From NCBI GenBank assembly GCA_041661745.1, contig JBAZTR010000005.1, forward strand, positions 3,283 through 67,282: DNA of 64,000 nucleotides, written 5' to 3'. The stretch's first letter is position 1, and each line of letters starts with the position of its first letter. Under the pieces are notes generated by a model that had not been told where the DNA came from, searched no databases, and saw nothing but the letters and a program-made list of their open reading frames with translations. Of this stretch, positions 12,523 through 37,404 are shown in pieces. This stretch comes from Patescibacteria group bacterium. GTDB lineage: Bacteria; Patescibacteriota; Patescibacteriia; UBA9934; GWF2-40-263. Made by a program: the position numbers and the translations under genes.

Positions 12523-12612
12523 AGCTTGTAGCTGGTAGGAGGTAGCTTGTAGGGTTGCTTGGTTTGAATTATTCCAAACCGGCAAATCCTACAAGCTACA
12601 AGCTACTTCCTA
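12523..12612. repeat. Palindromic intergenic element, copy A (AGCTTGTAG family)
   Basis: TTTAGCTTGTAG...TAGCTTGTAGG ... CCTACAAGCTACAAGCTACTTCCTACAAGCT with an internal hairpin GGTTTGAATTATTCCAAACC. A near-identical copy lies at 37307-37404. Confidence 0.6.
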
Positions 12613-12620
12613 CAAGCTGG

Positions 12621-13130
12621 TTACAAACTATTAATAATTACTTTCGCCGGACAAACCACTTTTCCGTCCACCTTCCAGCCGCGGCGGACAACTTCCAACA
12701 CGATTCCATCTTCACGCTCTTCCTCGCGTCGACTGCCGGCGGATTCGTGAAGTTCGGGATTGAATTTTTCACCGGTGCCATCGAATGATTCAGCTCCCAA
12801 ATCTTTGAGAGCGACTTCGAGTTGGGCTTTAATTTGCAGCGCCCCGGCAATCCATTTATCTGCGGCTTCGTCGTCAGTGTGTGGACGGTGTTTACCGGCG
12901 GCGTCGAAATTATTCATGATTGGCAGAAGCGAGATTAAAAGTTCAACCGTGGTGGCCCGACGCATTTCGCCACGTTCGCGCGATAAATCTTTTTTTAAAT
13001 TGTCGTAGTCGGCCAGTGCCCGTTTCCAGCCGGCAAGATATTCATCGCGTTGGCTTTCTGTCTGAGAGGCTTGAGAGGCTGGAGATGCCGGAGAGGCATT
13101 TTGTTTTTCTTCTTCTTTTTTGTCTGTCAT
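12621..13130 (-). CDS. grpE: Nucleotide exchange factor GrpE
   Basis: The acidic N-terminus and the GrpE core and C-terminus (RGWKVDGKVV...AKVII) are present. The likely true start is MTDKKEEE at 13130; the ORF track extends to 13223. Confidence 0.8.
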   Translation of the reverse strand: MTDKKEEEKQNASPASPASQASQTESQRDEYLAGWKRALADYDNLKKDLSRERGEMRRATTVELLISLLPIMNNFDAAGKHRPHTDDEAADKWIAGALQIKAQLEVALKDLGAESFDGTGEKFNPELHESAGSRREEEREDGIVLEVVRRGWKVDGKVVCPAKVIINSL

Positions 13131-13167
13131 AAAATAAATTAATTTTTTACAAAGCCTTTCCGGCCTT

Positions 13168-13884
13168 TCAGTCCTTTCCGGCCTCTCCAGCATCAAGATC
13201 CAACAATTCTTTTGCCTCCTCAATCAACGCGATATTTTTTTCGTAATCCATGCGGAGCGGCCCAAGCAGGCCGAGGAAACCGGTAACTTTGTTTGGCAAC
13301 TGATATTTAACAAGAATTGCCGCCATGTCTTCGCCAAAAGGATTTTCTTTACCAATCATGACTTGCGGTTCAGACGAAATGGAGTCGAAAATCTCCCCAG
13401 CCACATCGTCGAAGCGATCGACAATGGACGACAAATTGCGCAAGACTTCAAGATCGCGAAATTCCGGTTTTTGGAAAAGGTTAGCCACCCCGGTGTAAAA
13501 ACTGCGGCGCGGATCGAAAGCGACAATGGCGGTTTCGCCGGAAAGGTCAACCAACTTTCTGGCCAGTGAACGCAAAGCGTCTTCGCCATCAAACGCCCCG
13601 ACCATGGACTGACGCAACTTGGCACTGCCACGATTAGCATGTTTGGACGGAACAAAGTTGCGCAAATAGAATTCGTAAGCCTTCTCAGTCGGCACGCGGC
13701 CAGCTGAAGCGTGCGGCGAGCGCAAGTAACCCTCATCCTCCAACACCATCATTTCGTTGCGAATAGTGGCCGGCGAAACGTCGAAACCGCAATTTTCACA
13801 AAGATACTTTGAACCAACCGGCTCAGCCGTTCGGACATATTCTTCAATTATGGCGCGCAAAATGCGCTGGCAACGTTCGTCCAT
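13168..13884 (-). CDS. hrcA: Heat-inducible transcription repressor HrcA
   Basis: N-terminal winged helix (RILRAIIEEYVRTAEPVGSKYL). It is first in an hrcA-grpE-dnaK-dnaJ array, with CIRCE immediately upstream. Confidence 0.85.
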   Translation of the reverse strand: MDERCQRILRAIIEEYVRTAEPVGSKYLCENCGFDVSPATIRNEMMVLEDEGYLRSPHASAGRVPTEKAYEFYLRNFVPSKHANRGSAKLRQSMVGAFDGEDALRSLARKLVDLSGETAIVAFDPRRSFYTGVANLFQKPEFRDLEVLRNLSSIVDRFDDVAGEIFDSISSEPQVMIGKENPFGEDMAAILVKYQLPNKVTGFLGLLGPLRMDYEKNIALIEEAKELLDLDAGEAGKD

Positions 13885-13894
13885 AAATTAAAAA

Positions 13895-13921
13895 CTAGCA
13901 CTCCCTATTATAGAGTGCTAA
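13895..13921. promoter_or_regulatory. CIRCE operator (HrcA binding site)
   Basis: CTAGCACTC-CCTATTATA-GAGTGCTAA matches TTAGCACTC-N9-GAGTGCTAA with one mismatch. It sits about 10 nt upstream of the hrcA start. Confidence 0.85.
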
Positions 13922-13934
13922 TTTATAGTGTCAA
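13907..13934 (-). promoter_or_regulatory. hrcA promoter overlapping CIRCE
   Basis: The minus strand reads TTGACA + 16-17 nt + TATAAT, and the -10 hexamer lies inside the CIRCE spacer. Confidence 0.55.
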
Positions 13935-13964
13935 GGCCTTTTTAAGCCGCAATTTTTTAGATCC

Positions 13965-15218
13965 TTATTTCCCTGTCCTTTCGGCGAGTTCCTTAGCGCG
14001 GGCTTGGGCTTCGGAAATTTTTTCAGGCGAGGCCACCGAATCCCTAAAAAGTATTCTTTTCATCTTACCAAGAAGCCCTTGCGGTCGCGCCGGCGGTCTG
14101 ACTGGCGCGATTTCTACTTTTTTCTCTCCCGGTACTTCAATAGCAACCGCGGTAATGTCGTCTGATTTGCGGCGCATATTATACGGGTCACGCGAAGCGT
14201 CTAATGCGGTGTCTCGCAAATTTTCCAGTTGAGCTTGTAGATTGTCTCCCTTCATGGCCTTACCGATTTTTCTAGTGGGCAAATTATCAGACACGCCATC
14301 GGAAACAAGAATAATACGATCGCCTTTTCTAAGATTGGGAACAAAAGCGGTGTGAACAGCAAAGTCTTTTCTAAAAGTCAGATCCTCTTTACTCATTCCA
14401 ACCATTTGCGTTACCTTGCTTCGAAAATGTCCGTCAAAATACAATTTGAAAGCGCGGACGGTTTGGACTAATCGCAACAGACGCCGATCTTCAAGTGAGT
14501 TCTTTTTTGTCTTTTTAAGATCAGGTATGGCTTTTTCAATTTCTTCCCCGTTGTTCACAACAGCTATTCTAAACGCCTCCAAAATCTGATGATCAGTGCC
14601 AAAATTTTTCCTCAATAATTCCGCGGCAAAATCAGCGCCCCCGGTTGCTTCGGAAATCAATTCAGCGGCCTCAAGATCGATAATATCTTTCTTAACCCAT
14701 AAGTCCAGCATGCCGTCATCTTCCATTTTTACCCGCTCGATTGTTCCATCGGCGCGTTGAATAAAAGCCTGCGAATCGCCGACACTTTTAATTATAGCTT
14801 GGCAACCGCTCGGAGTTTCCAACATTCTAGCTATCATTAATGTGGCTGAGGCAGTTTTTCCGCCGGGTGAAGTTAATTTTTTGGAAAACTTTTCGCCCTC
14901 CTCAATTATTTTACGAAATTCGGCTTCCATGGATCTGTTTAATTCGTCCAAATTTCGGCCAACCATGTGTGGCGCGGCCTCACGTGCCAAACGTACAGCC
15001 TCGCGGCTCATCTTTTCACCAGATTCTTGACCACCGGCGCCATCGGACAAAATAATCAAACCGTTTTCCGCGTCAACAAAAGAAGCGTCTTCATTACGTT
15101 CAGGATGTTTTTCCGAAGCTCTGGTGGCCTCGGCCGTAACAAAAGGAATATGCTCGCGTTCTCTTTGCTCGGTTTTGATAGGTGGATGATAAGACCTTCT
15201 GTCTTCTAAGGATGACAT
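13965..15218 (-). CDS. PP2C-family Ser/Thr protein phosphatase (paralog 1)
   Basis: RxxNED motif (PERNEDA), a metal-binding SDGAGG, and a C-terminal VSDGVSDNL. It aligns along its length with the adjacent 408-aa paralog. Confidence 0.65.
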   Translation of the reverse strand: MSSLEDRRSYHPPIKTEQREREHIPFVTAEATRASEKHPERNEDASFVDAENGLIILSDGAGGQESGEKMSREAVRLAREAAPHMVGRNLDELNRSMEAEFRKIIEEGEKFSKKLTSPGGKTASATLMIARMLETPSGCQAIIKSVGDSQAFIQRADGTIERVKMEDDGMLDLWVKKDIIDLEAAELISEATGGADFAAELLRKNFGTDHQILEAFRIAVVNNGEEIEKAIPDLKKTKKNSLEDRRLLRLVQTVRAFKLYFDGHFRSKVTQMVGMSKEDLTFRKDFAVHTAFVPNLRKGDRIILVSDGVSDNLPTRKIGKAMKGDNLQAQLENLRDTALDASRDPYNMRRKSDDITAVAIEVPGEKKVEIAPVRPPARPQGLLGKMKRILFRDSVASPEKISEAQARAKELAERTGK

Positions 15219-15222
15219 AATA

Positions 15223-16449
15223 TTAGCTAACTTTTTCTAATTCTTTGGTTTCATTACTTCCTTTGGCAAGGCCCAGAGCGCGGGCTTGGGCTTCAGAAAT
15301 TTCAGCTGGAAGAGCTGCTGCGGATTTCCTTGTCAGTATGCCTCTTAGCCGCCCAAAAAAACTGGACGAGGGGGCCGGAGATTTAGCTGGTGTTGTTTCA
15401 ACTATTGCCGCTTCCGGCACTTCAATACCAATCGATGTTATATCATCGGCCTTGTGCCGCATATGGTTCTGGTCGCGTGAGCGAGCCAGGGCAGTGTCTC
15501 GCAAATTTTCCAACTGATCTTGAAAATCGGTACCAACAGCGGCCGCATCAATTTGTTCGGTATTTAAATTATCAGACACGCCGTCAGAAACAAGAAAAAG
15601 CCGATCGCCCGGACGCAAATTGGCAACAATGGCAGTATGAATAACGAACTCCCCACCCTCCATTTGTTTTCTGTCCGCCCCAACCGATTGAGTCACGGCA
15701 CCACGTTTCTCGTTGGAAAAATATCGTTTAAAAGCGGTTACAATTTGAAACAGCAGCAAATTTTCTTTTCTTAAATCATCTGAGTTCGCGTCTAAATCCC
15801 ACAAACCCATGCCAAAAAATTTAGTTATTTGTTCCACGGAACCAAAATTACGTGCCAATAATTCAGCAGAAAAACTGTTTACATCAGTTGCTTCGGAAAT
15901 TAAGTTAGCCACTTCTGGCGAAAATCTTTGCATTTCCACCAGTAAGTTTAAATAGCCGTCTTCAAATAATTCAACTTTTTCAAGTTGCCCGTTAGCCCGT
16001 TTAATATAGGCGCGCGAGTCGCCAAGACCCTTAACAACGGCACTATAACGGCCGTTGACTTCAATTAGTTTGGCTAAAATTAAAGTGGCCATGGCCTCTT
16101 TACTGCCCTTGGGGGTAAGTTGCCTAGAAATTTTTTCACCTTTTTTAAGTATGAGATTAATTTCTGCATCCATGGCCTGGCTTAGCTCGTCGATTGTATT
16201 GCCAGTCATGCGTGGAGCGCTTTCCTTAACAAGTTGAATGGTGGCCCGACTCATTTTATCACCAGAAGCATGACCGCCAGCACCATCAGACAAAGCAACC
16301 AAGCCGTTTTCAGCGTCAGAAAAAGTGGAATCTTCGTTTCTATCAGGATGTTTTTCCGAGGCAATGGTGGTTTCAGCTGTAACAAAACGTCGTTGTTCGC
16401 GTTTTTCACGAACCATGGTTGGACTGAAAAAAAATTCTGGGCTAGCCAT
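15223..16449 (-). CDS. PP2C-family Ser/Thr protein phosphatase (paralog 2)
   Basis: Same motifs as paralog 1 (PDRNEDS, LSDGAGGHASG, LVSDGVSDNL). The two genes are tandem and separated by 4 nt. Confidence 0.65.
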   Translation of the reverse strand: MASPEFFFSPTMVREKREQRRFVTAETTIASEKHPDRNEDSTFSDAENGLVALSDGAGGHASGDKMSRATIQLVKESAPRMTGNTIDELSQAMDAEINLILKKGEKISRQLTPKGSKEAMATLILAKLIEVNGRYSAVVKGLGDSRAYIKRANGQLEKVELFEDGYLNLLVEMQRFSPEVANLISEATDVNSFSAELLARNFGSVEQITKFFGMGLWDLDANSDDLRKENLLLFQIVTAFKRYFSNEKRGAVTQSVGADRKQMEGGEFVIHTAIVANLRPGDRLFLVSDGVSDNLNTEQIDAAAVGTDFQDQLENLRDTALARSRDQNHMRHKADDITSIGIEVPEAAIVETTPAKSPAPSSSFFGRLRGILTRKSAAALPAEISEAQARALGLAKGSNETKELEKVS

Positions 16450-16493
16450 ACAAAATAAATTTTACCAAAAAAATTGACCGCTGGAAAGAGCGA

Positions 16494-16895
16494 TCAAAGA
16501 AGGTCAACGACACAAGCGGCCGCCGAGGTCGCGAGGACAGCATGCCGGCCATCGTCCAGCTCGGGAAAGTCCTCCTCTTCCGAACCGCTGAGGAGATGCG
16601 TCCGAATCCGTACAGCACATCCGTACCGAGCCTGCTTAAACTGGGAAACCTCGTGTCGCTCGATCCAGCCGTCACGCGACACGACGAACTGTAGGCCGGC
16701 TATCCAGTCGGCCGACATTTCTACCCCGAAAGCGACGACGAAGAAAGTCAGCGTGCCGTCGTCATTACGGCTCATCGCCACGCTTTCGATGCTGTCGAAC
16801 AGGTAGAAGTCGAACGCTTCCTGGTTCAGGAAGGTGATGTTGCCAACGGAGATGGTTTCCCTTCTCCGTTGACGACGCAACGAGAAGGGATCCAT
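16494..16895 (-). CDS. Hypothetical protein, high-GC island 2 (133 aa)
   Basis: A high-GC block with ORFs open on both strands. The minus-frame protein has normal composition and is preceded by a consensus promoter. Confidence 0.4.
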   Translation of the reverse strand: MDPFSLRRQRRRETISVGNITFLNQEAFDFYLFDSIESVAMSRNDDGTLTFFVVAFGVEMSADWIAGLQFVVSRDGWIERHEVSQFKQARYGCAVRIRTHLLSGSEEEDFPELDDGRHAVLATSAAACVVDLL

Positions 16896-16924
16896 GGTGT
16901 CTCCGGGGGTGGAAGGAACAACGC

Positions 16925-16953
16925 ACCTTAGCCTTATTTTCAGTCCGTGTCAA
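16925..16953 (-). promoter_or_regulatory. Sigma70-type promoter of island 2 (TTGACA-N17-TAAGGT)
   Basis: On the minus strand, TTGACA lies at 16953-16948 and TAAGGT at 16930-16925 with an exact 17-nt spacer. The -35 hexamer falls within the last codons (GLDTD) of the antiporter gene. Confidence 0.45.
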
Positions 16954-18667
16954 GGCCAATGTCTTCATCGGCCTCTTTTTTACCGGTTTTCTTTATCTTC
17001 TCCCATTGTTTAGCCTTATCTTTATTGCGCCGCAAGAGTTCACTAAAACGCTCGGCTCCCAAAATACTGGGGACAATTACATAGGCCGCCCCGGCCGTAT
17101 AACATTCTAAAGCTTCTTCGGCTGACCGCGCCGCGACAATGGCCGTGCCTTTAAATTTTTCTTCACGCAAATAAGTTAACAATTCCAAGCTGGTGGTGAC
17201 ATCGGGAATAGTGGAAAGAATTAGTCGTGTTTTTTCAGCACGCAGTTCTTTAAGAAAATCTTCGTCGCCAGCATCGCCGTAAATTGCCGGAATTCTTTTT
17301 GCTTTAAGTTCTTCGATTACATTAGGATCATAATCAACCACCAAATATTTGTGACCGATTTTCTTTACCTCATTCAACAAAACCTCGCCGGTACGATGAC
17401 AACCAAAAAGAATCGTGTTAGGCGAATTTAAAGTTCGCGCGCGCGCCGCGTGTCTAACACGACCGTTTTCCAAAAAGCGAAGAACCGGCCGCAACCATTC
17501 ATAAATTCGCTCGTTTTCTTTAACCAAGTAAGTCGAACCGGCAATGGTAATTAAACCAACGACCGTGGCCAAGGTAAGAGCCGCGGGAGAAACAAATCCC
17601 AGTGAAATGCCGGCCCCCAACATAATAAAAGAAAATTCCGAAACCTGAGCCGCCGTGGTACCGGTCAAAAAGCCGGTTTGGGGGTGGTAACCAAGAGCCC
17701 GCAAAACCAACATCATGATAATGGGATTACCAATAAGCACGTAAAGCGAAAAAATTATGATTGGCCAAAGCAAGGTTGAGGCCGTCGACAACTGAAGCTG
17801 CGAACCCAGAACGATAAAAAACAAAATTAAAAAGAAATCGCGAAGCGGTTTAATCCGCGCGTTAATTTCCCGCTCGTAGTGCGTTCCGGAAAGAGCGACA
17901 CCGGCAATAAGCGCGCCAATTTCCACACCAAAACCAAAGTAATAAAGCAGGCCGGCCACGGTAAAACACCAACCCAATGAAAAAACCAACAAAAGTTCTT
18001 GTGATGACGCGGCAAACTTAACTAAATGTGGCACCACCTTGGCCGAAAGAAACCAAAAAACCACCACCACTACCAAACCCTTGGCCAACGATAACCATAA
18101 AATATCAATTGGTGTCTGGCCTTTCCCAACCGCTCCCAGCACCAACAAAATAATCATGGCCACCAAATCCTGTACGATCAAAAAACCGACAGCAATTTTT
18201 CCGTAAAGGGTATCAAGATCTTCCTTGTCCATGAGCATCTTAACAATGATGATGGTACTGGAAAAAGAAAAGGCAATGGAAATAAATAAACTGGTAGTGA
18301 TGTCAAAGCCCAAGGCGTGAGCAATAAGGAAACCAACAGCTGAAGTAAAAAATACTTGGCCCAAACCACTGGCCACGGCCACGGTGCCGACTTCCCTAAT
18401 GCGCCGCCAATTAAGACCCAAGCCAACGGTAAACAAAAGAAAAGCCACGCCTAATTTTCCCAAAGAATCTAAAACTTCGGTTTCGTGGGTTAAGGCCAAA
18501 AAAGCCGGACCAACTAAAATTCCGGCCACCAAGTAGGCAATTACCAACGGCTGTTTAAAAACCCTAACCAAAAAAGACAACGCCGCGGCAATGACAATTA
18601 CTCCACCAATCTGAAAAAATAAACTTTCTGGCATATCCTCCTTTTGATTGAATTTATTATAGCACAA
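16940..18667 (-). CDS. CPA2-family monovalent cation:proton antiporter with a C-terminal RCK/TrkA-N domain (KefB-like)
   Basis: About 12 TM helices with CPA2-like motifs, followed by a Rossmann NAD-binding TrkA-N domain (ILFGCHRTG...DAGDEDFL). Confidence 0.8.
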   Translation of the reverse strand: MCYNKFNQKEDMPESLFFQIGGVIVIAAALSFLVRVFKQPLVIAYLVAGILVGPAFLALTHETEVLDSLGKLGVAFLLFTVGLGLNWRRIREVGTVAVASGLGQVFFTSAVGFLIAHALGFDITTSLFISIAFSFSSTIIIVKMLMDKEDLDTLYGKIAVGFLIVQDLVAMIILLVLGAVGKGQTPIDILWLSLAKGLVVVVVFWFLSAKVVPHLVKFAASSQELLLVFSLGWCFTVAGLLYYFGFGVEIGALIAGVALSGTHYEREINARIKPLRDFFLILFFIVLGSQLQLSTASTLLWPIIIFSLYVLIGNPIIMMLVLRALGYHPQTGFLTGTTAAQVSEFSFIMLGAGISLGFVSPAALTLATVVGLITIAGSTYLVKENERIYEWLRPVLRFLENGRVRHAARARTLNSPNTILFGCHRTGEVLLNEVKKIGHKYLVVDYDPNVIEELKAKRIPAIYGDAGDEDFLKELRAEKTRLILSTIPDVTTSLELLTYLREEKFKGTAIVAARSAEEALECYTAGAAYVIVPSILGAERFSELLRRNKDKAKQWEKIKKTGKKEADEDIGLDTD

Positions 18668-18783
18668 AAAAATATTAGATTGAATAAATTATTTGTCGGA
18701 TAAATCCAGACAAGTTGCGTGTTGCCACTTTTGGCTAAGAATAGTACAGTTTTCTTACAACAAAAAATATTGTAATTATTTTT

Positions 18784-19548: not shown

Positions 19549-19564
19549 CTCACAAAAAAACAAT

Positions 19565-28984: not shown

Positions 28985-29495
28985 TTTCAGACCCCTCACC
29001 CCTTTCCCCCGCTACTTGCAGATGAGCGGGGCTCTTCCCCTCCCCCAAGGCTGGGAGGGGAGAAAATTTCGGTTTTAATTATTTTAATTACAGAATCAAT
29101 GTCCTTTAAGACTTGTTCGTTTGTAAATCTCAAAATTTTATACCCAAATCCTTCTAAAACATCGCTCCTAAATTTGTCGTGTTCGGAAAAATCTTTCTTT
29201 TGATGAATCGGCCCATCAACCTCAATAATCAATTTAAGAGTGCGGCTACAAAAATCCGTTATAAAATTTTCTATTCCGACTTGCCGAGAAAACTTAACAC
29301 CCAACCTACTGTTTCTTAAACGACGCCAAAGAACTTCTTCAGCCTCCGTACTTTTTTCCCTTAATTCCCTTCGACTCTCTTTAAGTTTAGAAGGGTTCAT
29401 TTTTGGTACTTCTAACATAAAAATCTTGCCCCCTCTCAGCCCCGGGAGAGGGGGATGGCCTCTCTTGATTTGGAGAGGGGTGAGGGATTCGCTAA
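28985..29495. mobile_element. Miniature DUF559 element: the gene is flanked by GC hairpins and ~20-nt terminal inverted repeats
   Basis: Left end CAGACCCCTCACCCCTTTCC (28985-) versus the reverse complement of the right end, GAATCCCTCACCCCTCTCC (-29495). CCCCTCCC...GGGAGGGG hairpins lie inside both flanks. Confidence 0.45.
28996..29418 (-). CDS. DUF559 endonuclease-domain protein (Vsr/restriction-endonuclease-like fold)
   Basis: EEVLWRRLRN...FSRQVGIENFITDF...IIEVDG..H...D..R...L...G..ILRF matches the DUF559 family. A paralog is at 45577-45954. Confidence 0.75.
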   Translation of the reverse strand: MLEVPKMNPSKLKESRRELREKSTEAEEVLWRRLRNSRLGVKFSRQVGIENFITDFCSRTLKLIIEVDGPIHQKKDFSEHDKFRSDVLEGFGYKILRFTNEQVLKDIDSVIKIIKTEIFSPPSLGGGEEPRSSASSGGKG

Positions 29496-29550: not shown

Positions 29551-29608
29551 AACCCTCCTTGGCCTGAGTGAAATCAGGCCTAAACGTTCCTTGAGACAGG
29601 AGCTGGTC

Positions 29609-29830: not shown

Positions 29831-29882
29831 AGGGCTTTTTTAATTTTCAATATTCGCTCTTCGATGATAATATATTAACCGT

Positions 29883-31319
29883 ATGCAAACCTCGACTGAT
29901 CAAAAAATCTGGGAAGAAGAACAGCTAATTATTGCTGCAGAAAAACAAAAAACCCCCGAACTTTTTGTAACTTCAAAAAAAGAGCCAGGACAACTTTTTA
30001 CGCGTATCGGTATTCTTGATTATCCAACTTCCTTGCCCAAAGGTTATATAAAATACTCGCCGCTTGATTTTATTGTCGAAGAAATATTACCCGACGACAC
30101 AGTTGTTGATGTAGACAGTTTTAAAACTGACTCAAAGGCGATTATGTCCGGCCAAGGCACAATTTATGCCGATATTGTTAAAGTTGGCATTTCCACGCTT
30201 GATGCGGTTAATCGCATTGCCGAGGCTTTGAACCTTGATCCAAAACAAATCGGCTACGCCGGAATTAAAGATGCTGTTGCCCTAACTTCGCAAACTGTCA
30301 GTTTCCGTGGCGGTGTTACGGTTGAAGAAATTAAAAAACTTTCAGTTCAAGGAGTTATTATAAAAAACGTGGTGGAAGGAAAAGGGGCCGTCCAAATCGG
30401 CGCGCTTAAGGGAAACCATTTTACTTTATTCGTTAGAACGGAAAAACAGATTGACGAAGTCGCTTTTCAAAAAAATATCTCTCTTATCAACGAAAAAGGC
30501 ATTCCCAATTACTTTGGCCCGCAACGTTTTGGCAGTCCGCGCTTTTTGTCGCACTTATTCGGCATGCATTTGCTGCGTGGTGAGCCAAAAGAAGTGGTAA
30601 AAACTTATTTCTTTAAAACCAGTGAATTTGAATATCCATTCGTCACCAATTTACGAAACGAAGCCGCCAAACACTGGGGCGACTGGCCAGCGGTGGAGAA
30701 AATCTTTTCCACACTTCCCTACACCTTTCGTCATGAATTGAAGATATTGGAAACTTTAAAAGAACCGGGCAAACAAGATTCGTTTGTCGAAGCCTTATCA
30801 ACTATCGATCGCCAAGTTGATTTGTGGGCCCGCGCTTACGCCAGTTTTTTAAACAATCTTATTTTTTCCGAAGCCGAAACTGCCAGTCTTCCCTTGCCCG
30901 AGACAACTATTCAACTTTTAACGGAAAATCCCGAAGCACAAAATTTATATGGTAAATGGCTGGCAACACACGGCACCAAAAAATTCGTGGAAAATTTAAA
31001 ACAATTTCGTTTTACCAATTTTATTCACTTGGGCAATGCGGCTATTCCATCGCGCGTTAGGCCACATGTGCATAACTATAAAATTGTCCCCGAAGGCGTG
31101 GCTATTTGTTTTGATTTGCCCAAAGGGGCCTATGCCACCACGGTTTTAATGTTTCTATTCGACACCGTTACCGGCCAGCCTTTTCCTGAATGGATGAGCC
31201 GGACTGATTTTGATTCAAAAGAATTATTAAGTCTTGGTTCAATTGCAGAAATTAAAAAAGCCCTCGGGCCTTCTGTTGAACAGTTGATGTCCAAAAAACA
31301 GGAAGTTGAGGGGGATTAA
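29883..31319 (+). CDS. truD: tRNA pseudouridine(13) synthase TruD/Pus7 family (long form)
   Basis: The TruD signature YAGIKDAVALTSQ (GxKD..A.T.Q) is present. At 478 aa it resembles archaeal/eukaryotic Pus7-like forms rather than the ~350-aa bacterial TruD. Confidence 0.7.
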   Translation: MQTSTDQKIWEEEQLIIAAEKQKTPELFVTSKKEPGQLFTRIGILDYPTSLPKGYIKYSPLDFIVEEILPDDTVVDVDSFKTDSKAIMSGQGTIYADIVKVGISTLDAVNRIAEALNLDPKQIGYAGIKDAVALTSQTVSFRGGVTVEEIKKLSVQGVIIKNVVEGKGAVQIGALKGNHFTLFVRTEKQIDEVAFQKNISLINEKGIPNYFGPQRFGSPRFLSHLFGMHLLRGEPKEVVKTYFFKTSEFEYPFVTNLRNEAAKHWGDWPAVEKIFSTLPYTFRHELKILETLKEPGKQDSFVEALSTIDRQVDLWARAYASFLNNLIFSEAETASLPLPETTIQLLTENPEAQNLYGKWLATHGTKKFVENLKQFRFTNFIHLGNAAIPSRVRPHVHNYKIVPEGVAICFDLPKGAYATTVLMFLFDTVTGQPFPEWMSRTDFDSKELLSLGSIAEIKKALGPSVEQLMSKKQEVEGD

Positions 31320-31326
31320 TTGGTTG

Positions 31327-31360
31327 GGGACTAAGGGACTGGGATACTGAGGGACTGAGT
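31327..31360. repeat. Short tandem repeat, (GGGACTxx) x4
   Basis: GGGACTAAGGGACTGGGATACTGAGGGACTGAG lies immediately after the truD stop. Confidence 0.5.
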
Positions 31361-31380
31361 TTTTGAAAACTTCGTAGATA

Positions 31381-31428
31381 CGCGAACGCCGTGTAGACTG
31401 GTTCCACCCAAGAGGGGTGGGTCTACAC
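31381..31428. terminator. Large bidirectional hairpin between convergent truD and the island-4 gene
   Basis: CGCCGTGTAGAC-tggttccacccaagaggggtgg-GTCTACACGGCG: a 12-bp stem whose loop holds a nested CCACCC/GGGTGG hairpin. Confidence 0.55.
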
Positions 31429-31459
31429 GGCGTGAGTGCGGCTGCGTCTGCTAGTGTGA

Positions 31460-32041
31460 CTAGCGGGGGACGCACCGCATGTGGGCCTCGGTGTCCAGGA
31501 CGCGGAGGTCCCGGATCTCCCCGACCTCGTCGTCGTTGAGGGCGTGGGCCGGATTCACCGTCACACTGCCGTCCGGGTTCCGGAAGCAGTGGACGTGCCC
31601 GAAGGTCCGCCCGAGGATCTCGGTGAGCTTGGCCTGGAGGGCCGGGGACATGTCCAGGGCGGGCTTTCCTGCCTCGAGGACGACGACCAGGAAGTACATC
31701 CGGTCGCCCTCCTTCTGGAACATGGTCAGCCCGGTCACGGACCATCCGAACACCCTGGTCACGTCCGCGAGGACGCAGCGCAGGGAGACGGACTGGCGTC
31801 CCTCGGCCTTCCAACCGAACACCGGCGTGCCGGAGTCGGCCTGGCGGTTGCCGACGGCATCGGTGCGATCGCCGCGGAGGCCGTCGCGGCCGGCGGCACT
31901 GGCGCGCTCGATGTTGCGCTCGGTCAGCTCGGTCTGGCGCTGGGTGGAGCGCACGGTGCAGACGACTCCGAGTCCCTTGAGCATCGCGGCCGCCCGGTCG
32001 TTGATGCGGGGCTTGACGATGAACCTGACGATCTGCGACAT
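31460..32041 (-). CDS. Hypothetical protein, high-GC island 4 (~193 aa)
   Basis: The ATG at 32041-32039 is preceded by GGAGGTTCAA. The protein MSQIVRFIVKPRINDRAAAMLKGLGV... has two VFGW repeats. The overlapping 295-aa (-) and 188/217-aa (+) ORFs are R/G/P-rich antisense artifacts. Confidence 0.45.
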   Translation of the reverse strand: MSQIVRFIVKPRINDRAAAMLKGLGVVCTVRSTQRQTELTERNIERASAAGRDGLRGDRTDAVGNRQADSGTPVFGWKAEGRQSVSLRCVLADVTRVFGWSVTGLTMFQKEGDRMYFLVVVLEAGKPALDMSPALQAKLTEILGRTFGHVHCFRNPDGSVTVNPAHALNDDEVGEIRDLRVLDTEAHMRCVPR

Positions 32042-32133
32042 TTGAACCTCCTGGCGTTGAGCCAGAGTGGTGGGGGGGGGCTGGGTGGAACGAACACTCA
32101 ATCGGACCCTTTCGGATCAGAATCAAGCGTATA

Positions 32134-32162
32134 AATATATCATAAAAACACCCTTATGTCAA
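32134..32162 (-). promoter_or_regulatory. Sigma70-type promoter of island 4 (TTGACA-N17-TATATT)
   Basis: On the minus strand, TTGACA lies at 32162-32157 and TATATT at 32139-32134 with a 17-nt spacer. The -35 hexamer sits inside the AACACCCTT-GACAT-AAGGGTGTT hairpin that terminates the upstream methyltransferase gene. Confidence 0.45.
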
Positions 32163-32187
32163 GGGTGTTTTGCCTATTTAAGCCAAA

Positions 32188-32691
32188 TTATCGCCTATAT
32201 AAGTACATTTTAAGTTTACCTTCCACGTCATCAACCTTATCTGCCTCCCAGCCGACAATTGGCCAAACGTACGCAACCACACGCGCCCCAGGCTTTAGTT
32301 CCCTTTCCAACTTGGGCTTTATTTTGGCATAAGGCTCGGGCATGAGAAAAAGATAAACAATGTCAGCATCAGACAAATCAACTTTATATAAATTAGCCCA
32401 TTTAATTTTGACGTCGGTTTTGGCCAACCAGTTTCTAACAATCGCCACAATAATTTGGGGAATTGATAATTCAACACCAATGGCCTTAACCCCAAACCTC
32501 TTAGCCGCGGCTACGGACAGTCGAGCGTCACCGCATCCAAGATCGTAAAACTTCTCGCCAGGCTTCATTTCGACAAAATTCAAAAACCTCTCGATATCCT
32601 TCTTTTTAGTTGGCACCCACGGCGCACCCTGATTGGCGGCATAAGCCGTGGAGGCAATAAGAATAAGAATGATTAAAAGCACAACATACAT
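32188..32691 (-). CDS. Membrane-anchored class I SAM-dependent methyltransferase (small)
   Basis: An N-terminal TM helix, then WVPT, motif I LGCGDARL and a downstream acidic motif. A paralog is at 38469-39035. Confidence 0.55.
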   Translation of the reverse strand: MYVVLLIILILIASTAYAANQGAPWVPTKKKDIERFLNFVEMKPGEKFYDLGCGDARLSVAAAKRFGVKAIGVELSIPQIIVAIVRNWLAKTDVKIKWANLYKVDLSDADIVYLFLMPEPYAKIKPKLERELKPGARVVAYVWPIVGWEADKVDDVEGKLKMYLYRR

Positions 32692-32763
32692 AGTCGCTAT
32701 ATTATATTCGAATTAATGATTATTGCCAAAACAAAAACACGCGAATCGTTTTCGTGTGTTTTT

Positions 32764-32838
32764 GGTCGGGCTGGCGGGACTTGAACCCACGGCCTCTACG
32801 TCCCGAACGTAGCGCTCTACCTACTGAGCTACAGCCCG
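32764..32838 (-). tRNA. tRNA-Pro (anticodon CGG)
   Basis: The minus-strand sequence is CGGGCTGTAGCTCAGTAGGTAGAGCGCTACGTTCGGGACGTAGAGGCCGTGGGTTCAAGTCCCGCCAGCCCGACCA. It folds into a canonical cloverleaf with a C1-G72 pair, anticodon loop TTCGGGA and an encoded CCA. Confidence 0.85.
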
Positions 32839-32845
32839 ATATTTT

Positions 32846-32919
32846 TGGTGGCTGTAGCGAAGTATAAACTACTGCCCCGCCTCTGGCGGGGTCCCGCTAT
32901 AAGCGGGAAGCTACAGCCC
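32846..32919 (-). ncRNA. tRNA-like structured element adjacent to tRNA-Pro (non-canonical; possible tRNA remnant or regulatory RNA)
   Basis: The minus-strand sequence is GGGCTGTAGC-TTCCCGCTTATAGCGGGA-CCCCGCCAGAGGCGGGG-CAGTAGTTTATACTTC-GCTACAGCC-ACCA. It has a 9-10-bp closing stem identical to the tRNA-Pro 5' end, two perfect internal hairpins, and a 3' ACCA. There is no GTTC T-loop. Confidence 0.35.
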
Positions 32920-33033
32920 GATGCGAAAAAAGTATATATAACTTTACGGTTTTTGGCAAGATTACAAACTTCCATCCTTGCCACTTTTAAATTTTTATGT
33001 TTCAATCTCCCCAACATAAGACGACGGAGGCTT

Positions 33034-33266
33034 GTGTGAAAAACGCTCTTTTGATTGCCGTCGGCATCGGACTGTTCTCCCTTGGCACGGTCATCCACGA
33101 ATTATCCGTGTTCTTCAATACCTTTATCGGCTTCACAGCTCTCATGTACAAATGGCCACTTGAAGCTTTTGAATGCTTCAGTCTAATCATGATCCTAGCA
33201 CTAGGCGTTGCTTCTTCGACCAAGGCGCGCACTTATGAAGACGAAAAGGATGACGACCCAGGCTAG
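33034..33266 (+). CDS. Small hypothetical membrane protein (~77 aa)
   Basis: A GTG start at 33034 is preceded by GGAGGCTTGT. Two TM helices and an acidic tail. A CCAGC-cac-CAGCTGG+T6 terminator follows. Confidence 0.35.
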
Positions 33267-33343
33267 TACTCCTCTCCAGCCACCAGCTGGATTTTTTAAA
33301 TTATCTTATTTTTTCTTGCATAACTTTAAAAAGAAAGCCCGGA

Positions 33344-33895
33344 CTAGAAGTCCAGGCCTTCGCGGGCTTTCACCCCTTTGTAATAATAATGTTTTACCAT
33401 CTTCATTTCCGTAACCAGGTCAACTTTTTCCAAGACACTCGGCAAGGCGTGACGGCCGGTTAAAACCAATTCCATGTGCGCCGGCTTTTCGTCCAAAAAA
33501 CTCAGCGCATCTTTTTCTGGCAAAAGCCCCAAGGCGGCCACGGTATTGAATTCATCAAGAACAATTAAATCGTAACCATCGGCAAACATAACTCGCGCTT
33601 CGTTTAAACCACGCTGAACCTCGGCCTTGTCTTCATCAGTCACAGAAAAATCAAAGCGCCCAGTGACCGAATCAATACGGTCACGACCGGTCACAACAAA
33701 ATCAATGAGGTGACTTAACTTTTCCTGCAACGACTGCCGCTCGGAATAATGAACTCCGCCTTTGTCGAAAAAAATTATTCCAACTTTCTTCCCCGCTCCA
33801 ACGGCGCGCAAAGCAAGCCCTAGCGAGGCTGTGGTTTTGCCTTTGCCATCGCCGGTATAAACTTGAATCATGCCAAAAGTTTGATCTGGTGACAT
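33344..33895 (-). CDS. cobO: ATP:cob(I)alamin adenosyltransferase (CobO/BtuR family)
   Basis: P-loop YTGDGKGKTTA is followed by a CobA/BtuR-like core. It lies immediately downstream of the B12-dependent RNR. Confidence 0.75.
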   Translation of the reverse strand: MSPDQTFGMIQVYTGDGKGKTTASLGLALRAVGAGKKVGIIFFDKGGVHYSERQSLQEKLSHLIDFVVTGRDRIDSVTGRFDFSVTDEDKAEVQRGLNEARVMFADGYDLIVLDEFNTVAALGLLPEKDALSFLDEKPAHMELVLTGRHALPSVLEKVDLVTEMKMVKHYYYKGVKAREGLDF

Positions 33896-33912
33896 AGTCC
33901 TCCGTTATTTTT

Positions 33913-36900
33913 TTAACTACAACCCGAGGTTGCCCCGCAATTTAAGCATTTGTAACACGAGGCATTACGCACCATAATCGAACCGCAGGTGGGACAGGCT
34001 GGGGCATCAGACTGGTTATCAAAAGTTGAGGTCAAGCTCGCTTTTTTTTCGCCGGTAAACAAAGTCGGCTGTGGTTCCTCTTTACTACTGTCGGCCAGAG
34101 CAGGAACAGCAATGACAGTTTCTTCGACGCCATTATTTTCCACATTCATGACCCCGACAGCTCGTTGTTCTTCCGGTGTCATAAACTTCATGGCCATCCA
34201 GCGGAAAATGTAATCAACTAATGATTTGGCAATACGGATATTTGGGTTGTTGGTATAACCGGAAGGTTCAAAACGCATATGAACAAACCTGTTGACCAGT
34301 GACTGTAACGGCACACCATACTGCAAACCAACAGAAACTGAGGTGGCAAAGGCATCGGCCAAGCCACTAATGACCGAACCTTCTTTAGACATGGTTATAA
34401 ACATTTCACCCGGCGTGCCATCATCATATAAACCGACAGTGAGATAACCTTTGTGCGTACCCACTTGGAATTTATGAGTAATAGCTTTGCGCTCATCTGG
34501 CAAGCGACGACGCAACGGTTTGAAGGTTTCGTTGCGGCCATCGCCAACAGCCACCTCGGCTTTTTTGGCAACTTTCTTTGATTGGTCTTTATCAAGCGAA
34601 GTGGTTAAAGCCTGCTGACGTTTGGAACCGTCACGATAAACAGCCACGGCTTTAATGCCCATCTTCCAGGCTTCCACATAAACTTTTTCAATATCCTCAA
34701 CCGTGGCGCTGTTGGGCAAGTTAACGGTTTTGGAAATGGCGCCTGACAAAAACGGCTGAACCGCGGCCATCATGCGCAGGTGCCCCATGTACTGAATTGA
34801 ACGTGTGCCGTTAGCTGGTTTGAAAGCGCAATCAAAAACCGACAAATGTTCTTCTTTAAAATGCGGCGCGCCTTCAATGGTATCTTTTTCATTGATGTAA
34901 GCAAGGATATCTTTCTTTTCATCTTCGGTGTAGCCAAGGCGAGTTAAGGCTTCGGGAACGGTTTTGTTTACAATCTTAATCATGCCGCCGCCAACCAACC
35001 ACTTGTATTTAACCAAGGCAATGTCCGGTTCAACACCGGTGGTGTCGCAGTCCATTAAGAAAGCAATGGTACCAGTGGGGGCCAAAAGAGAAATTTGCGA
35101 GTTCCTAAAACCAAAGCGCGCGCCGCGTTCAACCACTTCACGCCAGGCTTCGCGGGCTTCGGAAAGCATTTGGCCAGAAACACCCTGGGCAGGAAGCTTA
35201 TCAGTTTCGTCACGATGACGACGCATGACATCAAGCATTGATTCGGCATTTTCTTGATACGAAATAAACGGCCCTTTCTTTTCGGCAATACGCGTTGACT
35301 GCGCGTAGCACACGCCGCTTTGGAGCGAAGTAATGGCCGCGGCCAAATTGCGCCCATTGTCGGAATCATAAGCCAAACCAAAACTCATGAGTAGCGCTCC
35401 GAGGTTGGCGTACCCAATACCCAAAGGACGGAAAATTAAACTGTTTTCTTCAATGGCCGGCGTTGGATAACTGGAATTGCCGACAATAATTTCCATGGCC
35501 GTAATCATGATTTCGTTGGCTTGTTTAAAAGCCGCCAGATCAAATTCAGATAAGCCGTTAACTTCTTTACGGAAGCGCATTAGGTTTAATGAAGACAAAT
35601 TGCAAGCCGAGTCATCAAGAAACATAAACTCCGAGCAAGGATTGGAAGCATTAATGCGACCGCTCTTTTTACAAGTGTGCCATTTGTTGGATTCGGTGTC
35701 GTATTGCAAACCAGGGTCACCGCATTGCCAAGCCGCTTCGCAGATTTTTTTCATGAGATCGGCGGCTTTAAAAGAAGTTGAAGGATTGCCGCTAATAACT
35801 TCTTTTGTAACCCAATCACCGCCGTTAATTATGGCGTTCATGAAATCATCGTTAACCCGCACTGAGTTGTTGGCGTTTTGAAAATAAATGGAGGAGTAAG
35901 CCGAACCATCAATGGAACCATCATACCCGGCGTCCATTAAAGCCCAGGCTTTCTTTTCTTCCTCGGCTTTGCAGATGATAAATTCTTCAATGTCAGGATG
36001 ATCGACGTTTAAAACCACCATTTTGGCGGCCCGACGAGTTTTGCCGCCACTCTTGATAACCCCGGCAAACGAGTCCAGTCCTTTCATGAAAGAGACAGGG
36101 CCAGAAGCACGACCATTGGAACCACCCAAATATTCTTTAGAGGAACGCAAAGTAGAAAAATTAGTCCCAGTGCCAGAACCACCTTTAAACAGCATACCCT
36201 CGGTAACCGCCAAGTTGAGAATGGAACGCATGTCGTCCTGCACGGAATTAATGAAACAAGCCGAACACTGCGGATTGTTTACCACTCCGACATTAAACCA
36301 CACCGGCGAATTAAACGCGGCCATTTGATTAATCAAAATATGCGTTAATTCGTGTTCAAAAACCGTGCCATCATCAGCGGTTTGAAAATAACCATCCTGT
36401 CGGCCCCAGCCGGCAATTGTTTTGGCCACGCGATCAATTAACTGGCGAGCCGATTGTTCGCGATCGGCCTGACCAACCTTACCGCGAAAATATTTTGAAG
36501 CCATGATGTTGGTGGCGGTTTGCGACCAAAATTCAGGCACCTCAACACCGGTTTGTTCAAAAACCACTTTACCCTTTTCGTTATTAATTCGAGCATCACG
36601 CAATTCCCACTTTATTTTTTCGTAAGGATGAACCCCGGCTTCGGTAAAATATCGTTTAATTTGCAAACCATGACCATAAACCGCTTCGCCGGCCTGGTGT
36701 GCACGATGTAGCGAACCAGCCCGGAAAGACATGTATTTTTTGGCAGCATGAATTAAATTATGATCAATCAGAGTCAGGTTAATCATTTCCCGAACATCCA
36801 TGGTGGTTGGCTGGCCATCGCCCTCAAAAGCCCGCTGTAGACGCGAAACCGCATGGCGAGTAATCTTGTCGATTAACTTCATGTCTTTAACCCCCGCTTC

Positions 36901-37071
36901 CACCATGGCCGCGCCGACGGAACGTTTAATTTTTTCGGCCTGAAACGGTTCGGTAATACCACTACGCTTTGTAACGATCTTTAACGAAGTAACAAAAGAC
37001 CAGGCAGCGTCGGAAACGCCGTCTGGCGATGAAACCGCTACGACTTTTGGGCCAAAGGAGGAATCGGACAT
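33913..37071 (-). CDS. nrdJ: Adenosylcobalamin-dependent ribonucleoside-triphosphate/diphosphate reductase (class II, NrdJ) with an N-terminal ATP cone
   Basis: ATP cone (VTKRSGITEPFQAEKIKRSV), the active-site region NPCSEFMFLDDSACNL and a C-terminal CxxC...CxxC zinc ribbon. The track ORF begins at a TTG at 37146; the ATG candidates are at 37071 and 37062. Confidence 0.85.
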   Translation of the reverse strand: MSDSSFGPKVVAVSSPDGVSDAAWSFVTSLKIVTKRSGITEPFQAEKIKRSVGAAMVEAGVKDMKLIDKITRHAVSRLQRAFEGDGQPTTMDVREMINLTLIDHNLIHAAKKYMSFRAGSLHRAHQAGEAVYGHGLQIKRYFTEAGVHPYEKIKWELRDARINNEKGKVVFEQTGVEVPEFWSQTATNIMASKYFRGKVGQADREQSARQLIDRVAKTIAGWGRQDGYFQTADDGTVFEHELTHILINQMAAFNSPVWFNVGVVNNPQCSACFINSVQDDMRSILNLAVTEGMLFKGGSGTGTNFSTLRSSKEYLGGSNGRASGPVSFMKGLDSFAGVIKSGGKTRRAAKMVVLNVDHPDIEEFIICKAEEEKKAWALMDAGYDGSIDGSAYSSIYFQNANNSVRVNDDFMNAIINGGDWVTKEVISGNPSTSFKAADLMKKICEAAWQCGDPGLQYDTESNKWHTCKKSGRINASNPCSEFMFLDDSACNLSSLNLMRFRKEVNGLSEFDLAAFKQANEIMITAMEIIVGNSSYPTPAIEENSLIFRPLGIGYANLGALLMSFGLAYDSDNGRNLAAAITSLQSGVCYAQSTRIAEKKGPFISYQENAESMLDVMRRHRDETDKLPAQGVSGQMLSEAREAWREVVERGARFGFRNSQISLLAPTGTIAFLMDCDTTGVEPDIALVKYKWLVGGGMIKIVNKTVPEALTRLGYTEDEKKDILAYINEKDTIEGAPHFKEEHLSVFDCAFKPANGTRSIQYMGHLRMMAAVQPFLSGAISKTVNLPNSATVEDIEKVYVEAWKMGIKAVAVYRDGSKRQQALTTSLDKDQSKKVAKKAEVAVGDGRNETFKPLRRRLPDERKAITHKFQVGTHKGYLTVGLYDDGTPGEMFITMSKEGSVISGLADAFATSVSVGLQYGVPLQSLVNRFVHMRFEPSGYTNNPNIRIAKSLVDYIFRWMAMKFMTPEEQRAVGVMNVENNGVEETVIAVPALADSSKEEPQPTLFTGEKKASLTSTFDNQSDAPACPTCGSIMVRNASCYKCLNCGATSGCS

Positions 37072-37306
37072 AAGAAGCATGGGGTTAAGGGCCAGTCCTT
37101 TTTTTAGGACAAGAAAAGACAATCCGCTGGGATTATCTTTTCGCAAAGACGCCCGTTATTGACGGTCTTTGCGCCCACTGAAACGAATCCGAAATGGTCC
37201 TCCTTTCCATTTCGTGGTGCTTATATTTTATGTCTTCCGAGGGGGTGTGTCAAAGACAAAGTTGTCCACAGAATTTATAAAAAAACGACACTTATTTTTG
37301 GCTTTG

Positions 37307-37404
37307 TTTAGCTTGTAGTCTGCAGAAATTAGCTTGTAGGATTTTGGAACAAAAAAACTTGTAACTTTGAATCCACCTACAAGCTACAAGCTACTTCCTA
37401 CAAC
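37307..37404. repeat. Palindromic intergenic element, copy B (AGCTTGTAG family)
   Basis: TTTAGCTTGTAG...TAGCTTGTAGG...CCTACAAGCTACAAGCTACTTCCTACAA. Its 3' arm is identical over ~29 nt to copy A at 12584-12612. Confidence 0.6.

Follow-up and report, generated by a model that had tools for sequence, protein, structure and literature searches.

Palindromic elements built on GTAG heptamers in intergenic spacers of Patescibacteria: a candidate REP-like dispersed repeat family

Tagged repetitive extragenic palindromic (REP) sequences carry a GTAG tag, are located downstream of open reading frames (ORFs), form head-to-head dimers that fold into large hairpins and occasionally occur as intragenic copies (PMC3733652). 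TnpA-REP of Escherichia coli requires this GTAG and cleaves single-stranded DNA (ssDNA) between C and T, including the position between CC and TAC in the complement of the tag (PMC3333891). TAACTGA heptamer repeats are found just upstream of start codons without Shine-Dalgarno (SD) motifs in Beggiatoaceae, cyanobacteria and Bacteroidetes (MacGregor 2015, PMC4679880), and only one indirect repeat was reported among 170 TAACTGA-type sets (PMC4679880). Here, we describe two imperfect palindromes of ~100 nt each, copy A (12518-12620, in the grpE-dnaK spacer) and copy B (37307-37409, upstream of nrdJ), in a 64,000-nt stretch of the genome of a Patescibacteria group bacterium (assembly GCA_041661745.1, contig JBAZTR010000005.1; hereafter “the window”), together with the family to which they belong. 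On balance, we favor the view that they represent a dispersed palindromic repeat resembling REPs or REP doublets forming hairpins (REPINs), built on GTAG heptamers and maintained and spread, or homogenized, as DNA, and not a dedicated regulator of dnaK or nrdJ.

The two copies are composed of the following parts:

12518-12620, whole palindrome of copy A in the grpE-dnaK spacer (folding, L161 copy)
12522-12553, plus strand, variable arm of copy A, TAG CTTGTAG CTGGTAG GAGGTAG CTTGTAGG, with a TAG every 7 nt (Tandem Repeats Finder (TRF), pattern search)
12554-12587, center of copy A, 34 nt, with the nested hairpin TTGGTTTG..CAAACCGG (folding, sequence comparison)
12588-12618, minus strand, conserved arm of copy A, read on that strand as AGCTTGTAG GAAGTAG CTTGTAG CTTGTAGG, the 5' arm of the mRNA hairpin
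37307-37409, whole palindrome of copy B, between the stop codon of ORF 37405-37980 and the nrdJ promoter-like site
37309-37340, plus strand, variable arm of copy B, TAG CTTGTAG TCTGCAG AAATTAG CTTGTAGG (pattern search)
37341-37375, center of copy B, 35 nt, weakly structured (folding, sequence comparison)
37376-37407, minus strand, conserved arm of copy B, read on that strand as TAG GTTGTAG GAAGTAG CTTGTAG CTTGTAGG (pattern search)

The initial annotation had described two palindromes at these sites, each lying between a stop codon and the next start codon on the minus strand, and this description was confirmed: copy A separates grpE from dnaK, copy B follows the stop codon of ORF 37405-37980, and both share an exact arm and are predicted to fold into a long imperfect hairpin on either strand. 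Folding of the gene-sense strand yielded -50.1 kcal/mol (z = -9.9) for copy A and -39.1 kcal/mol (z = -4.8) for copy B. The extra nested hairpin ascribed to copy A was recovered in its center as a 30-nt palindrome, while the center of copy B contains none of note. The identity of the 3' arms proved to be exact but to extend over 28 nt instead of ~29 nt, as the 28-mer CCTACAAGCTACAAGCTACTTCCTACAA (plus strand) is present at 12588-12615 and 37376-37403, with 0 occurrences expected in shuffled sequences. The centers are unrelated in sequence, indicating that the two copies have their arms in common and not the whole element, and the second, variable arms are alike only in their outer and inner units. 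In both copies, GTAGG directly precedes the center on both strands.

Each arm consists of four tandem heptamers that read NNNGTAG on one strand and CTACNNN on the other, with GTAG as the constant part of the unit. The arms of both copies thus qualify as heptanucleotide simple-sequence repeats (SSRs), being head-to-tail copies of a 7-nt unit; TRF assigned them a period of 7 with 4.3-4.7 units per arm and matches of just 73-76%. In the window, the patterns GTAG-N3-GTAG-N3-GTAG and (TAG-N4)x4 gave eight matches, against 0.02-0.03 expected, all of them at copies A and B. The 9-mer AGCTTGTAG occurs 10 times (0.24 expected), and nine of these occurrences fall within the two copies, where two plus-strand sites 21 nt apart are followed by minus-strand sites 7 nt apart (in copy A also 14 nt). 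A function as a DNA uptake sequence was rejected because this 9-mer is practically confined to two loci in 64 kb. An assembly artifact is ruled out by the identical copy A in an independent European Nucleotide Archive (ENA) assembly of the same organism (L161).

Outside of the window, the 18-mer CCTACAAGCTACAAGCTA was found at no fewer than 118 loci of the GTDB species-representative genomes, compared with ~17 expected by our own estimate (1.2e12 positions / 4^18). Judged from record titles, at least 64 of these at least 118 loci carry labels of the candidate phyla radiation (CPR). Among the matches listed, the CPR lineages are Saccharibacteria, Peribacteria/Peregrinibacteria, Paceibacterota and Doudna-, Buchanan-, Falkow-, Kuenen-, Roizman-, Gottesman-, Kaiser-, Nomura-, Vogel-, Sung- and Staskawiczbacteria; the same list includes cyanobacteria, several metagenome-assembled genomes (MAGs) labeled Rikenellaceae, Gammaproteobacteria or Selenomonadaceae and single matches from other phyla, and several of its MAGs contain at least 5-11 loci each. 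The 28-mer with one free position (N) was present in 39 metagenome contigs, with ~0 expected. No piece of the source genome turned up among these loci: megablast of the window against the metagenome loci recovered none, blastn against the genome loci gave just three short matches (68-72% identity), and the proteins GrpE, DnaK and P0001 had no exact match. The 18-mer had no match in IMG/VR, and a phage origin was rejected on this basis. A known RNA family was likewise rejected, since an Rfam scan at the gathering threshold returned only two tRNAs and left copies A and B unmatched, and a scan by E-value returned only a chance match to the let-7 hairpin (25 bits vs a threshold of 53.5 bits). In the available literature, neither the sequence nor such repeats in Patescibacteria were found described. 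The family is widespread and apparently undescribed, and its novelty would lie in the construction of REP-like palindromes from heptamer repeats.

Comparison of 42 non-redundant hairpin elements (60-216 nt, median ~95 nt) revealed a common layout that reads (NNNGTAG)4 - center - (CTACNNN)4 on either strand. Most arms comprise four units, the consensus unit is CTTGTAG, and GAAGTAG/GAATTAG, CTGGTAG and GTTGTAG occur as variants; exact arrays of 3-7 units are found in relatives. The polarity of this layout is strict. At a duplex energy of -30 kcal/mol or below, the inverted partner was located upstream of a (CTACAAG)n arm in 48 cases and downstream in 0, and unit matching gave 23 upstream vs 0 downstream. 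A conserved GTAG is thus located 5' of the foot of the palindrome, as in REPs, with the atypical property that it is repeated four times and paired with the other arm. The arms are far better conserved than the centers and often better than the flanking genes, and the centers of many elements in relatives hold one or two small GC-rich hairpins. Mirroring between the arms is imperfect: variant units (GAAGTAG, GAATTAG) often lack a matching unit on the opposite side, so that the stems contain regularly placed internal loops, with the GTAG/CTAC blocks still aligned. Tandem repeats at the family loci are dominated by period 7, with 92 arrays vs 0-4 for each of the periods 5, 6 and 8-11, and 34 of these 92 arrays are built of other units. 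Selection of the sense-strand RNA left no signal in folding energies, as the sense strand was preferred in 17 of 28 cases (p = 0.15), or in G-U pairs (72 vs 64).

The hairpin elements reside in 26 co-directional, seven convergent and three divergent spacers, which corresponds to the extragenic placement of REPs 3' of ORFs in unidirectional or convergent spacers. They mostly fill the spacer, leaving <20 nt to the stop codon and <20 nt to the next start codon. TAG-sense arrays adjoin or form the stop codon, and CTA-sense arrays end 6-35 nt before a start codon. Neighboring genes, recognized from their N-termini, include tig-smpB, rplK-rplA, fpg-holA, pheS-pheT, atpG-atpD, ssb-rpsR, groES-groEL and prfB-ftsE, and further sites are located before rpsM, nusB and dnaB. 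A role specific to heat shock (grpE-dnaK, groES-groEL, CIRCE-groES) was rejected, as other housekeeping genes make up most of the neighbors. Thirty of 127 arrays lie inside ORFs, all of them in CTA sense and in all three frames; examples of such (CTACAAG)n arrays are found in L022 (~1117-1145), L015, L103, L122/L134, L124 and others, where they encode linkers of LigA, Pth, KsgA-like and further proteins. In the LigA of L022, the array encodes an inter-domain linker of unchanged length, and the idea that intra-ORF arrays are net insertions was rejected for this protein.

Comparison of related genomes points to turnover of the element. It is absent from the grpE-dnaK spacers of relatives whose DnaK is 86-92% identical (L158, L159, L163, L165), which show the following arrangements:

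L158 (DnaK 92%), (TCCCTTCAAT)n before the dnaK ATG
L159 (DnaK 91%), grpE, then a hairpin with (GGCAACA)n/(TGTTGCC)n arms, then hsp20
L163 (DnaK 91%), a GxxExxY gene between hrcA and grpE, and (CCCCTTTAAC)n before dnaK
L165 (DnaK 86%), small GC hairpins in the grpE-dnaK spacer

The concern that the two copies might be a coincidence, with relatives lacking them, is borne out as far as this one orthologous spacer is concerned, but the family is large and far exceeds two copies. At the atpG-atpD spacer, a 114-nt element (L055 1750-1864 vs L056 3660-3773) is 92% identical between two related genomes when inverted and 70% identical in the same orientation, with flanks of 80-85% identity. The higher identity of the inverted alignment indicates that the element either flipped or entered this site twice. 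Two species with the element in their fpg-holA spacer share an arm at 25 of 25 positions, one flank is ~74% identical and the center is different. Heptamer-armed hairpins with other units (ACGAATT, AAATTCC, GGGGTTT) were identified in 146 kb of unbiased Uhrbacteria-like contigs; sites with these units or GGCAACA are L159 8380-8455, L163 2020-2137, L165 3192-3292 and L159 16683-16770. Heptamer-armed hairpins thus seem to be general in these genomes and not restricted to CTTGTAG.

These properties are shared in large part with REPs, bacterial interspersed mosaic elements (BIMEs) and REPINs, which are mobilized by Y1 transposases of the RAYT/TnpA-REP type and are likewise small, dispersed, multi-copy palindromes with GTAG 5' of the hairpin on each strand, the tag lying outside in head-to-head dimers. 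Inverted pairs yield one large imperfect hairpin with a variable linker, and imperfect (“heterodimer”) pairing is preferred (PMC3733652, PMC3333891, PMC3116915). Like the present elements, they follow ORFs in unidirectional and convergent spacers, seldom occupy divergent ones and are found inside genes on occasion. The hosts of the family described here are mainly Patescibacteria, a phylum that is not listed for tagged REPs in PMC3733652. In the non-CPR matches (L005, L011, L012, L037, L081, L082, L115 and a Rikenellaceae MAG), CTTGTAG arrays abut GC-rich REP-like palindromes and thereby display REP geometry. With TAACTGA and other heptamer repeats, the family shares short tandem 7-nt arrays (2-6 copies), stop codons within the unit, an occurrence in distant phyla and the lack of an evident transfer mechanism; unlike those, its arrays are mostly inverted pairs of strict polarity that form long hairpins, and its units are imperfect, with only GTAG fixed. 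Intergenic heptanucleotide direct repeats are reportedly also represented by the short tandemly repeated repetitive (STRR) heptamers of cyanobacteria. The small dispersed repeats (SDRs) of Nostoc, 21-27 nt in length, are said to be modules of <30 nt that occur in unrelated contexts, including hairpins and heptamer tracts, and for which no transposase is known; their sequences and hosts differ from those of the present family, and they are considered a lead only.

The initial annotation had suggested a REP-like repeat or a transposable element of the miniature inverted-repeat type (MITE). Dispersal, placement and the GTAG 5' of the hairpin agree with the former. MITEs resemble the copies in their length of ~100 nt, their terminal inverted arms, their intergenic location and their folding into hairpins, but neither copy is flanked by a target-site duplication, the interiors of copies A and B are unrelated, and no related autonomous insertion sequence and no transposase in the window was found; a classical MITE was therefore rejected.

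Taken together, near-identical dispersed arms, free centers, inversion, the absence of a strand bias and gain or loss between relatives argue for a DNA-level repeat and against a gene-specific RNA. In this REP/REPIN-like model, the element would persist and spread, or be homogenized, as DNA, probably via single-stranded hairpin intermediates that are handled by a putative enzyme, and its arms would lengthen or shorten in 7-nt steps. By analogy with TnpA-REP, each CTACAAG unit contains a potential cleavage site between C and T, so that cutting and rejoining between neighboring units would shift the arrays by 7 nt, as might be expected of a Y1/HUH-type mechanism. The element might be tolerated in tiny spacers because a TAG-first arm closes all three frames on both strands, right where the upstream gene stops, and because the element presumably halts neither RNA polymerase nor ribosomes. 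Effects at the RNA level may be a consequence: by comparison with intercistronic REPs of E. coli, the hairpin between grpE and dnaK could affect how the mRNA is processed or degraded, or how the two cistrons are coupled, and the copy B hairpin could protect the 3' end of the upstream exonuclease message.

Several observations weigh against this assignment. A classical REP carries a single unpaired GTAG next to a GC-rich stem of 6-13 bp, whereas the tag occurs four times here and forms the stem itself. The central palindrome of REPs (20-40 nt with a short loop) is optional and unconserved in the present family and not clearly recognizable in copy B. A Pfam scan of the ~60 ORFs of the window revealed no RayT/Y1 transposase, and no RayT-like ORF was detected near 157 family members by phmmer, motif search and a RayT profile hidden Markov model (HMM; 119 sequences of enterobacterial origin), a search of limited sensitivity that covered pieces of ~8 kb. 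With no RayT in the window or in these pieces, membership in a REP-associated tyrosine transposase (RAYT) system is not established. The copy number of the source genome is known for the window only and amounts to two elements per 64 kb. Some orthologous spacers have kept the element, its arms being better conserved than the coding sequence on either side, which could indicate a selected function. Finally, the heptamer-armed hairpins without GTAG in related genomes raise the possibility that the link to GTAG does not explain the whole phenomenon.

More tentatively, the elements could belong to a new REP-like system of Patescibacteria that occurs sporadically elsewhere, in which a ~28-nt module of four heptamers in GTAG phase is placed to either side of a site in a fixed polarity and maintained by an enzyme or binding protein other than RayT. 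The module would sometimes be present singly, even in frame within protein linkers, and would be kept across deeply divergent lineages. A specific trans-acting partner is implied by the GTAG phase, the four units, the fixed polarity and the conservation of the arms across lineages. Candidates would be an HUH/Y1-type ssDNA nuclease cutting C from TAC every 7 nt, an oligomeric protein that binds RNA or ssDNA with UAG periodicity, or the addition of repeats at both 3' ends of a break, which alone would produce the polarity “R ... reverse-complement of R”. Such a partner could be traced by phylogenetic profiling. The genomes of CPR/Patescibacteria are very small and densely packed, and very little is known of the way in which they organize expression. 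A family residing between the stop and start codons of neighboring genes in core operons (ATP synthase, ribosomal proteins, chaperones, aminoacyl-tRNA synthetases) of many CPR lineages would be one of two things, an important parasite of streamlined genomes or a post-transcriptional device of general use. Its elements may mislead gene callers, provide natural markers for strain typing and may be hotspots of inversion and rearrangement.

The genes relevant for the interpretation of copies A and B are all located on the minus strand:

12621-13223, minus strand, grpE, the cistron upstream of copy A, 190 aa as called in L161 and up to 200 aa in the ORF listing
10608-12512, minus strand, dnaK, the cistron downstream of copy A, without an SD motif, like nearly all genes of the window
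13892-13934, minus strand, hrcA-grpE-dnaK promoter directly upstream of hrcA, a sigma-70 match of 12/12 (TTGACA-16-TATAAT) over the controlling inverted repeat of chaperone expression (CIRCE)
37225-37253, minus strand, nrdJ promoter-like site (TTGACA-17-TAAAAT, 11/12), downstream of copy B
33913-37146, minus strand, nrdJ (class II ribonucleotide reductase)

Copy A is part of an operon of hrcA (13168-13884), grpE, dnaK, an ORF of 77 aa, a HAD hydrolase gene and dnaJ. It starts 2 nt past the grpE stop codon (TAA, 12621-12623) and ends 10 nt short of the dnaK ATG (12512), a gap that leaves no room for a promoter, so that dnaK must be transcribed through copy A. The CIRCE inverted repeat at 13892-13924 (TTAGCACTC-N9-GAGTGCTAG, spacer TATAATAGG) overlaps the hrcA promoter. 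It represents the real heat-shock operator and is separate from copy A, and identity of the element with a CIRCE/HrcA operator (TTAGCACTC-N9-GAGTGCTAA inverted repeat) was rejected, as no sequence is shared. The RNase H-like/exonuclease ORF 37405-37980 has as its stop codon the first TAG (37405-37407) of the copy B arm, and the element ends ~55 nt upstream of the nrdJ promoter-like site and thus outside the nrdJ leader. SD-like motifs are almost absent from the ~60 gene starts of the window, positions -5 to -2 are A-rich and T is found at -1 in 41 of 60 starts, which suggests that translation in this organism generally starts independently of SD motifs. The nearest named relatives of its DnaK are in Candidatus Uhrbacteria/Patescibacteria. 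With nearly all genes of the window lacking the motif, the SD-less dnaK start is normal. The proposal that the CTA arm substitutes for a ribosome-binding site is weakened in a genome without SD motifs whose A-rich leaders carry T at -1.

An attenuator or terminator controlling dnaK and nrdJ, as had been proposed, would be in line with a stable hairpin right after a stop codon and with the position of copy B at a probable operon end. This interpretation is effectively excluded, since neither stem is followed by a T-run on either strand, A-rich tracts follow the stems on the gene strand, the terminator scan did not call the elements, dnaK depends on read-through of copy A and the nrdJ promoter-like site is located downstream of copy B. 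The family is furthermore found between atpG-atpD, pheS-pheT, rplK-rplA and groES-groEL, pairs of housekeeping genes in operons where a strong terminator would not be tolerated. An RNA hairpin selected in cis could alternatively act as a processing site for RNase III or another nuclease, as a barrier to 3' exonucleases that sets the levels of the cistrons, or as a coupling device, in which a ribosome terminating at the foot of the stem would open the outer helix and release the A-rich leader of the following gene. In favor of this, most co-directional elements, grpE-dnaK among them, have a stem that begins 0-4 nt past the stop codon and ends 6-20 nt ahead of the start codon, the element persists in the atpG-atpD and fpg-holA spacers of different species, where its arms exceed the coding flanks in conservation, and initiation in an SD-less genome should depend on unstructured A-rich leaders. 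In E. coli, REPs within 15 nt of a stop codon reportedly affect translation, and intercistronic REPs are said to affect mRNA stability. Set against this are the flipped orientation at the orthologous atpG-atpD site, the lack of a sense-strand folding bias or an excess of G-U pairs, arms without covariation whose unmirrored variant units generate 3x3 internal loops, and the absence of the element at grpE-dnaK of close relatives. In addition, some copies sit in convergent spacers, some consist of one arm and some lie within ORFs, and what comes after copy B is a promoter and not a cistron. We therefore regard a selected RNA hairpin as unlikely, though less so than the remaining alternatives.

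The initial annotation had also considered a protein-binding site with direct repeats. The repeats are real and carry GTAG/UAG with a 7-nt period, and an oligomeric protein could read them every 7 nt in single-stranded RNA or ssDNA, with binding to the 5' arm competing with the hairpin and thereby gating its effects. GTAG/TAG is invariant and variation within the unit is limited to the other three bases, the TAG arm takes the 5' position on either strand without exception, arm length clusters at four units, and the 7-nt period is off the DNA helical repeat, which would favor a reader of single strands. HutP, which reportedly reads UAG-N4-UAG-N4-UAG, and TRAP are the closest models; they are ring oligomers that bind periodic UAG/GAG triplets, and their sites resemble the elements in that the 5' strand of a hairpin contains UAG triplets separated by 4 nt. 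However, no HutP, TRAP or other candidate was found among the ~60 proteins of the window, there is no terminator to antagonize, the dispersed elements adjoin unrelated genes that do not form a coherent regulon, and relatives contain heptamer-armed hairpins with TAG-less units. An antiterminator site of the HutP type was rejected, as the UAG pattern is present but the window proteins lack a HutP domain and the elements lack terminator features, and the more general binding array appears quite improbable. It is still more doubtful that the arms are plain heptanucleotide microsatellites, generated by replication slippage and inverted by chance, without machinery or function. Period-7 arrays are the commonest tandem repeats in these genomes and comprise several different units, the native end of grpE, AGTTTGTAA, resembles the unit AGCTTGTAG, and heptamers are, according to the summary of Mrazek 2007 given in PMC4679880, the most abundant class of long SSRs in prokaryotes. 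Slippage would not account for identical arms of 27-28 nt, including the non-consensus GAA(G/T)TAG unit, in unrelated genes and genomes, nor for the strict polarity of 48 to 0 or for a unit number that stays near four and is the same between orthologous copies, which differ by point changes instead.

Copy B adjoins a cassette (37983-38466) with a GxxExxY / PD-(D/E)XK_3 nuclease gene (TIGR04256, PF13366; ORF 38010-38429, minus strand, 139 aa). The cassette is bounded by 35-nt inverted arms of tandem 8-mers, upstream of the (CTACGAAA) type and downstream of the (TTTCGTAG) type, which are 89% complementary. The downstream arm supplies, with its first TAG, the stop codon of the ORF, and the ATG of the next gene follows directly. 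The cassette looks like an insertion whose arms could pair in RNA in the manner of an intervening sequence. A second GxxExxY gene is located between hrcA and grpE of a relative with 91% DnaK identity (L163 6330-6880 / L164 2680-3230), flanked by inverted tandem-repeat arms with the unit ATGATT / AATCAT[AG]; the layout of a nuclease ORF between repeat arms thus recurs with unrelated arms. The GxxExxY nuclease was rejected as the autonomous partner of the family, as no such gene was found near any of the 157 loci. In addition, the polarity of the cassette (CTA-type arm, ORF, TAG-type arm) is opposite to that of the family, and a deletion of the ORF would not yield TAG-first hairpins.

Two small ORFs of the DUF559 (Vsr-like endonuclease) type are present in the window (28996-29418 and 45577-45954). 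The second is flanked on each side by a 66-nt direct repeat (45508-45573 and 45934-45999, 80% identical) containing the hairpin CCCTCCCC..GGGGAGGG, a third copy of which occurs at the first DUF559 ORF (29038-29070). This arrangement has the appearance of another type of small selfish cassette.

Downstream of dnaK, an ORF of 77 aa without a Pfam match (10372-10605, minus strand) follows directly. An ORF of 73-77 aa occupies the same position in L158, L159, L161 and L163 and is located one gene further downstream in L165/L166, which makes it likely to be a genuine small gene conserved in the dnaK operon. In the public assembly L161, dnaK is called with 619 aa instead of 634 (start at 10001, corresponding to 12512 in the window), i.e., 15 codons short, and the palindromic element 10 nt upstream of the canonical start may have misled the gene caller.

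The nrdJ leader past the promoter-like site contains a small hairpin, CGAAATGG-AAAGGAGGA-CCATTTCG (37185-37215, minus strand), whose loop carries a GGAGG motif, a motif with few occurrences in the window. The gene that comes after nrdJ (33344-33895) encodes a corrinoid adenosyltransferase.

In a region of higher GC content, the segments 47411-47797 and 48444-48830 are direct repeats of ~71% identity with a spacing of 1033 nt. Simple ORF picking placed the overlying ORFs (47263-48174 and 48308-49072, no Pfam match) on opposite strands, which clashes with a direct duplication, and the gene calls at 47411-48830 need to be checked. Just upstream of the hrcA operon, two tandem paralogous genes for PP2C/SpoIIE-like phosphatases (13965-15218 and 15223-16449) share DNA segments of 70-76% identity, spaced by 1243-1285 nt.

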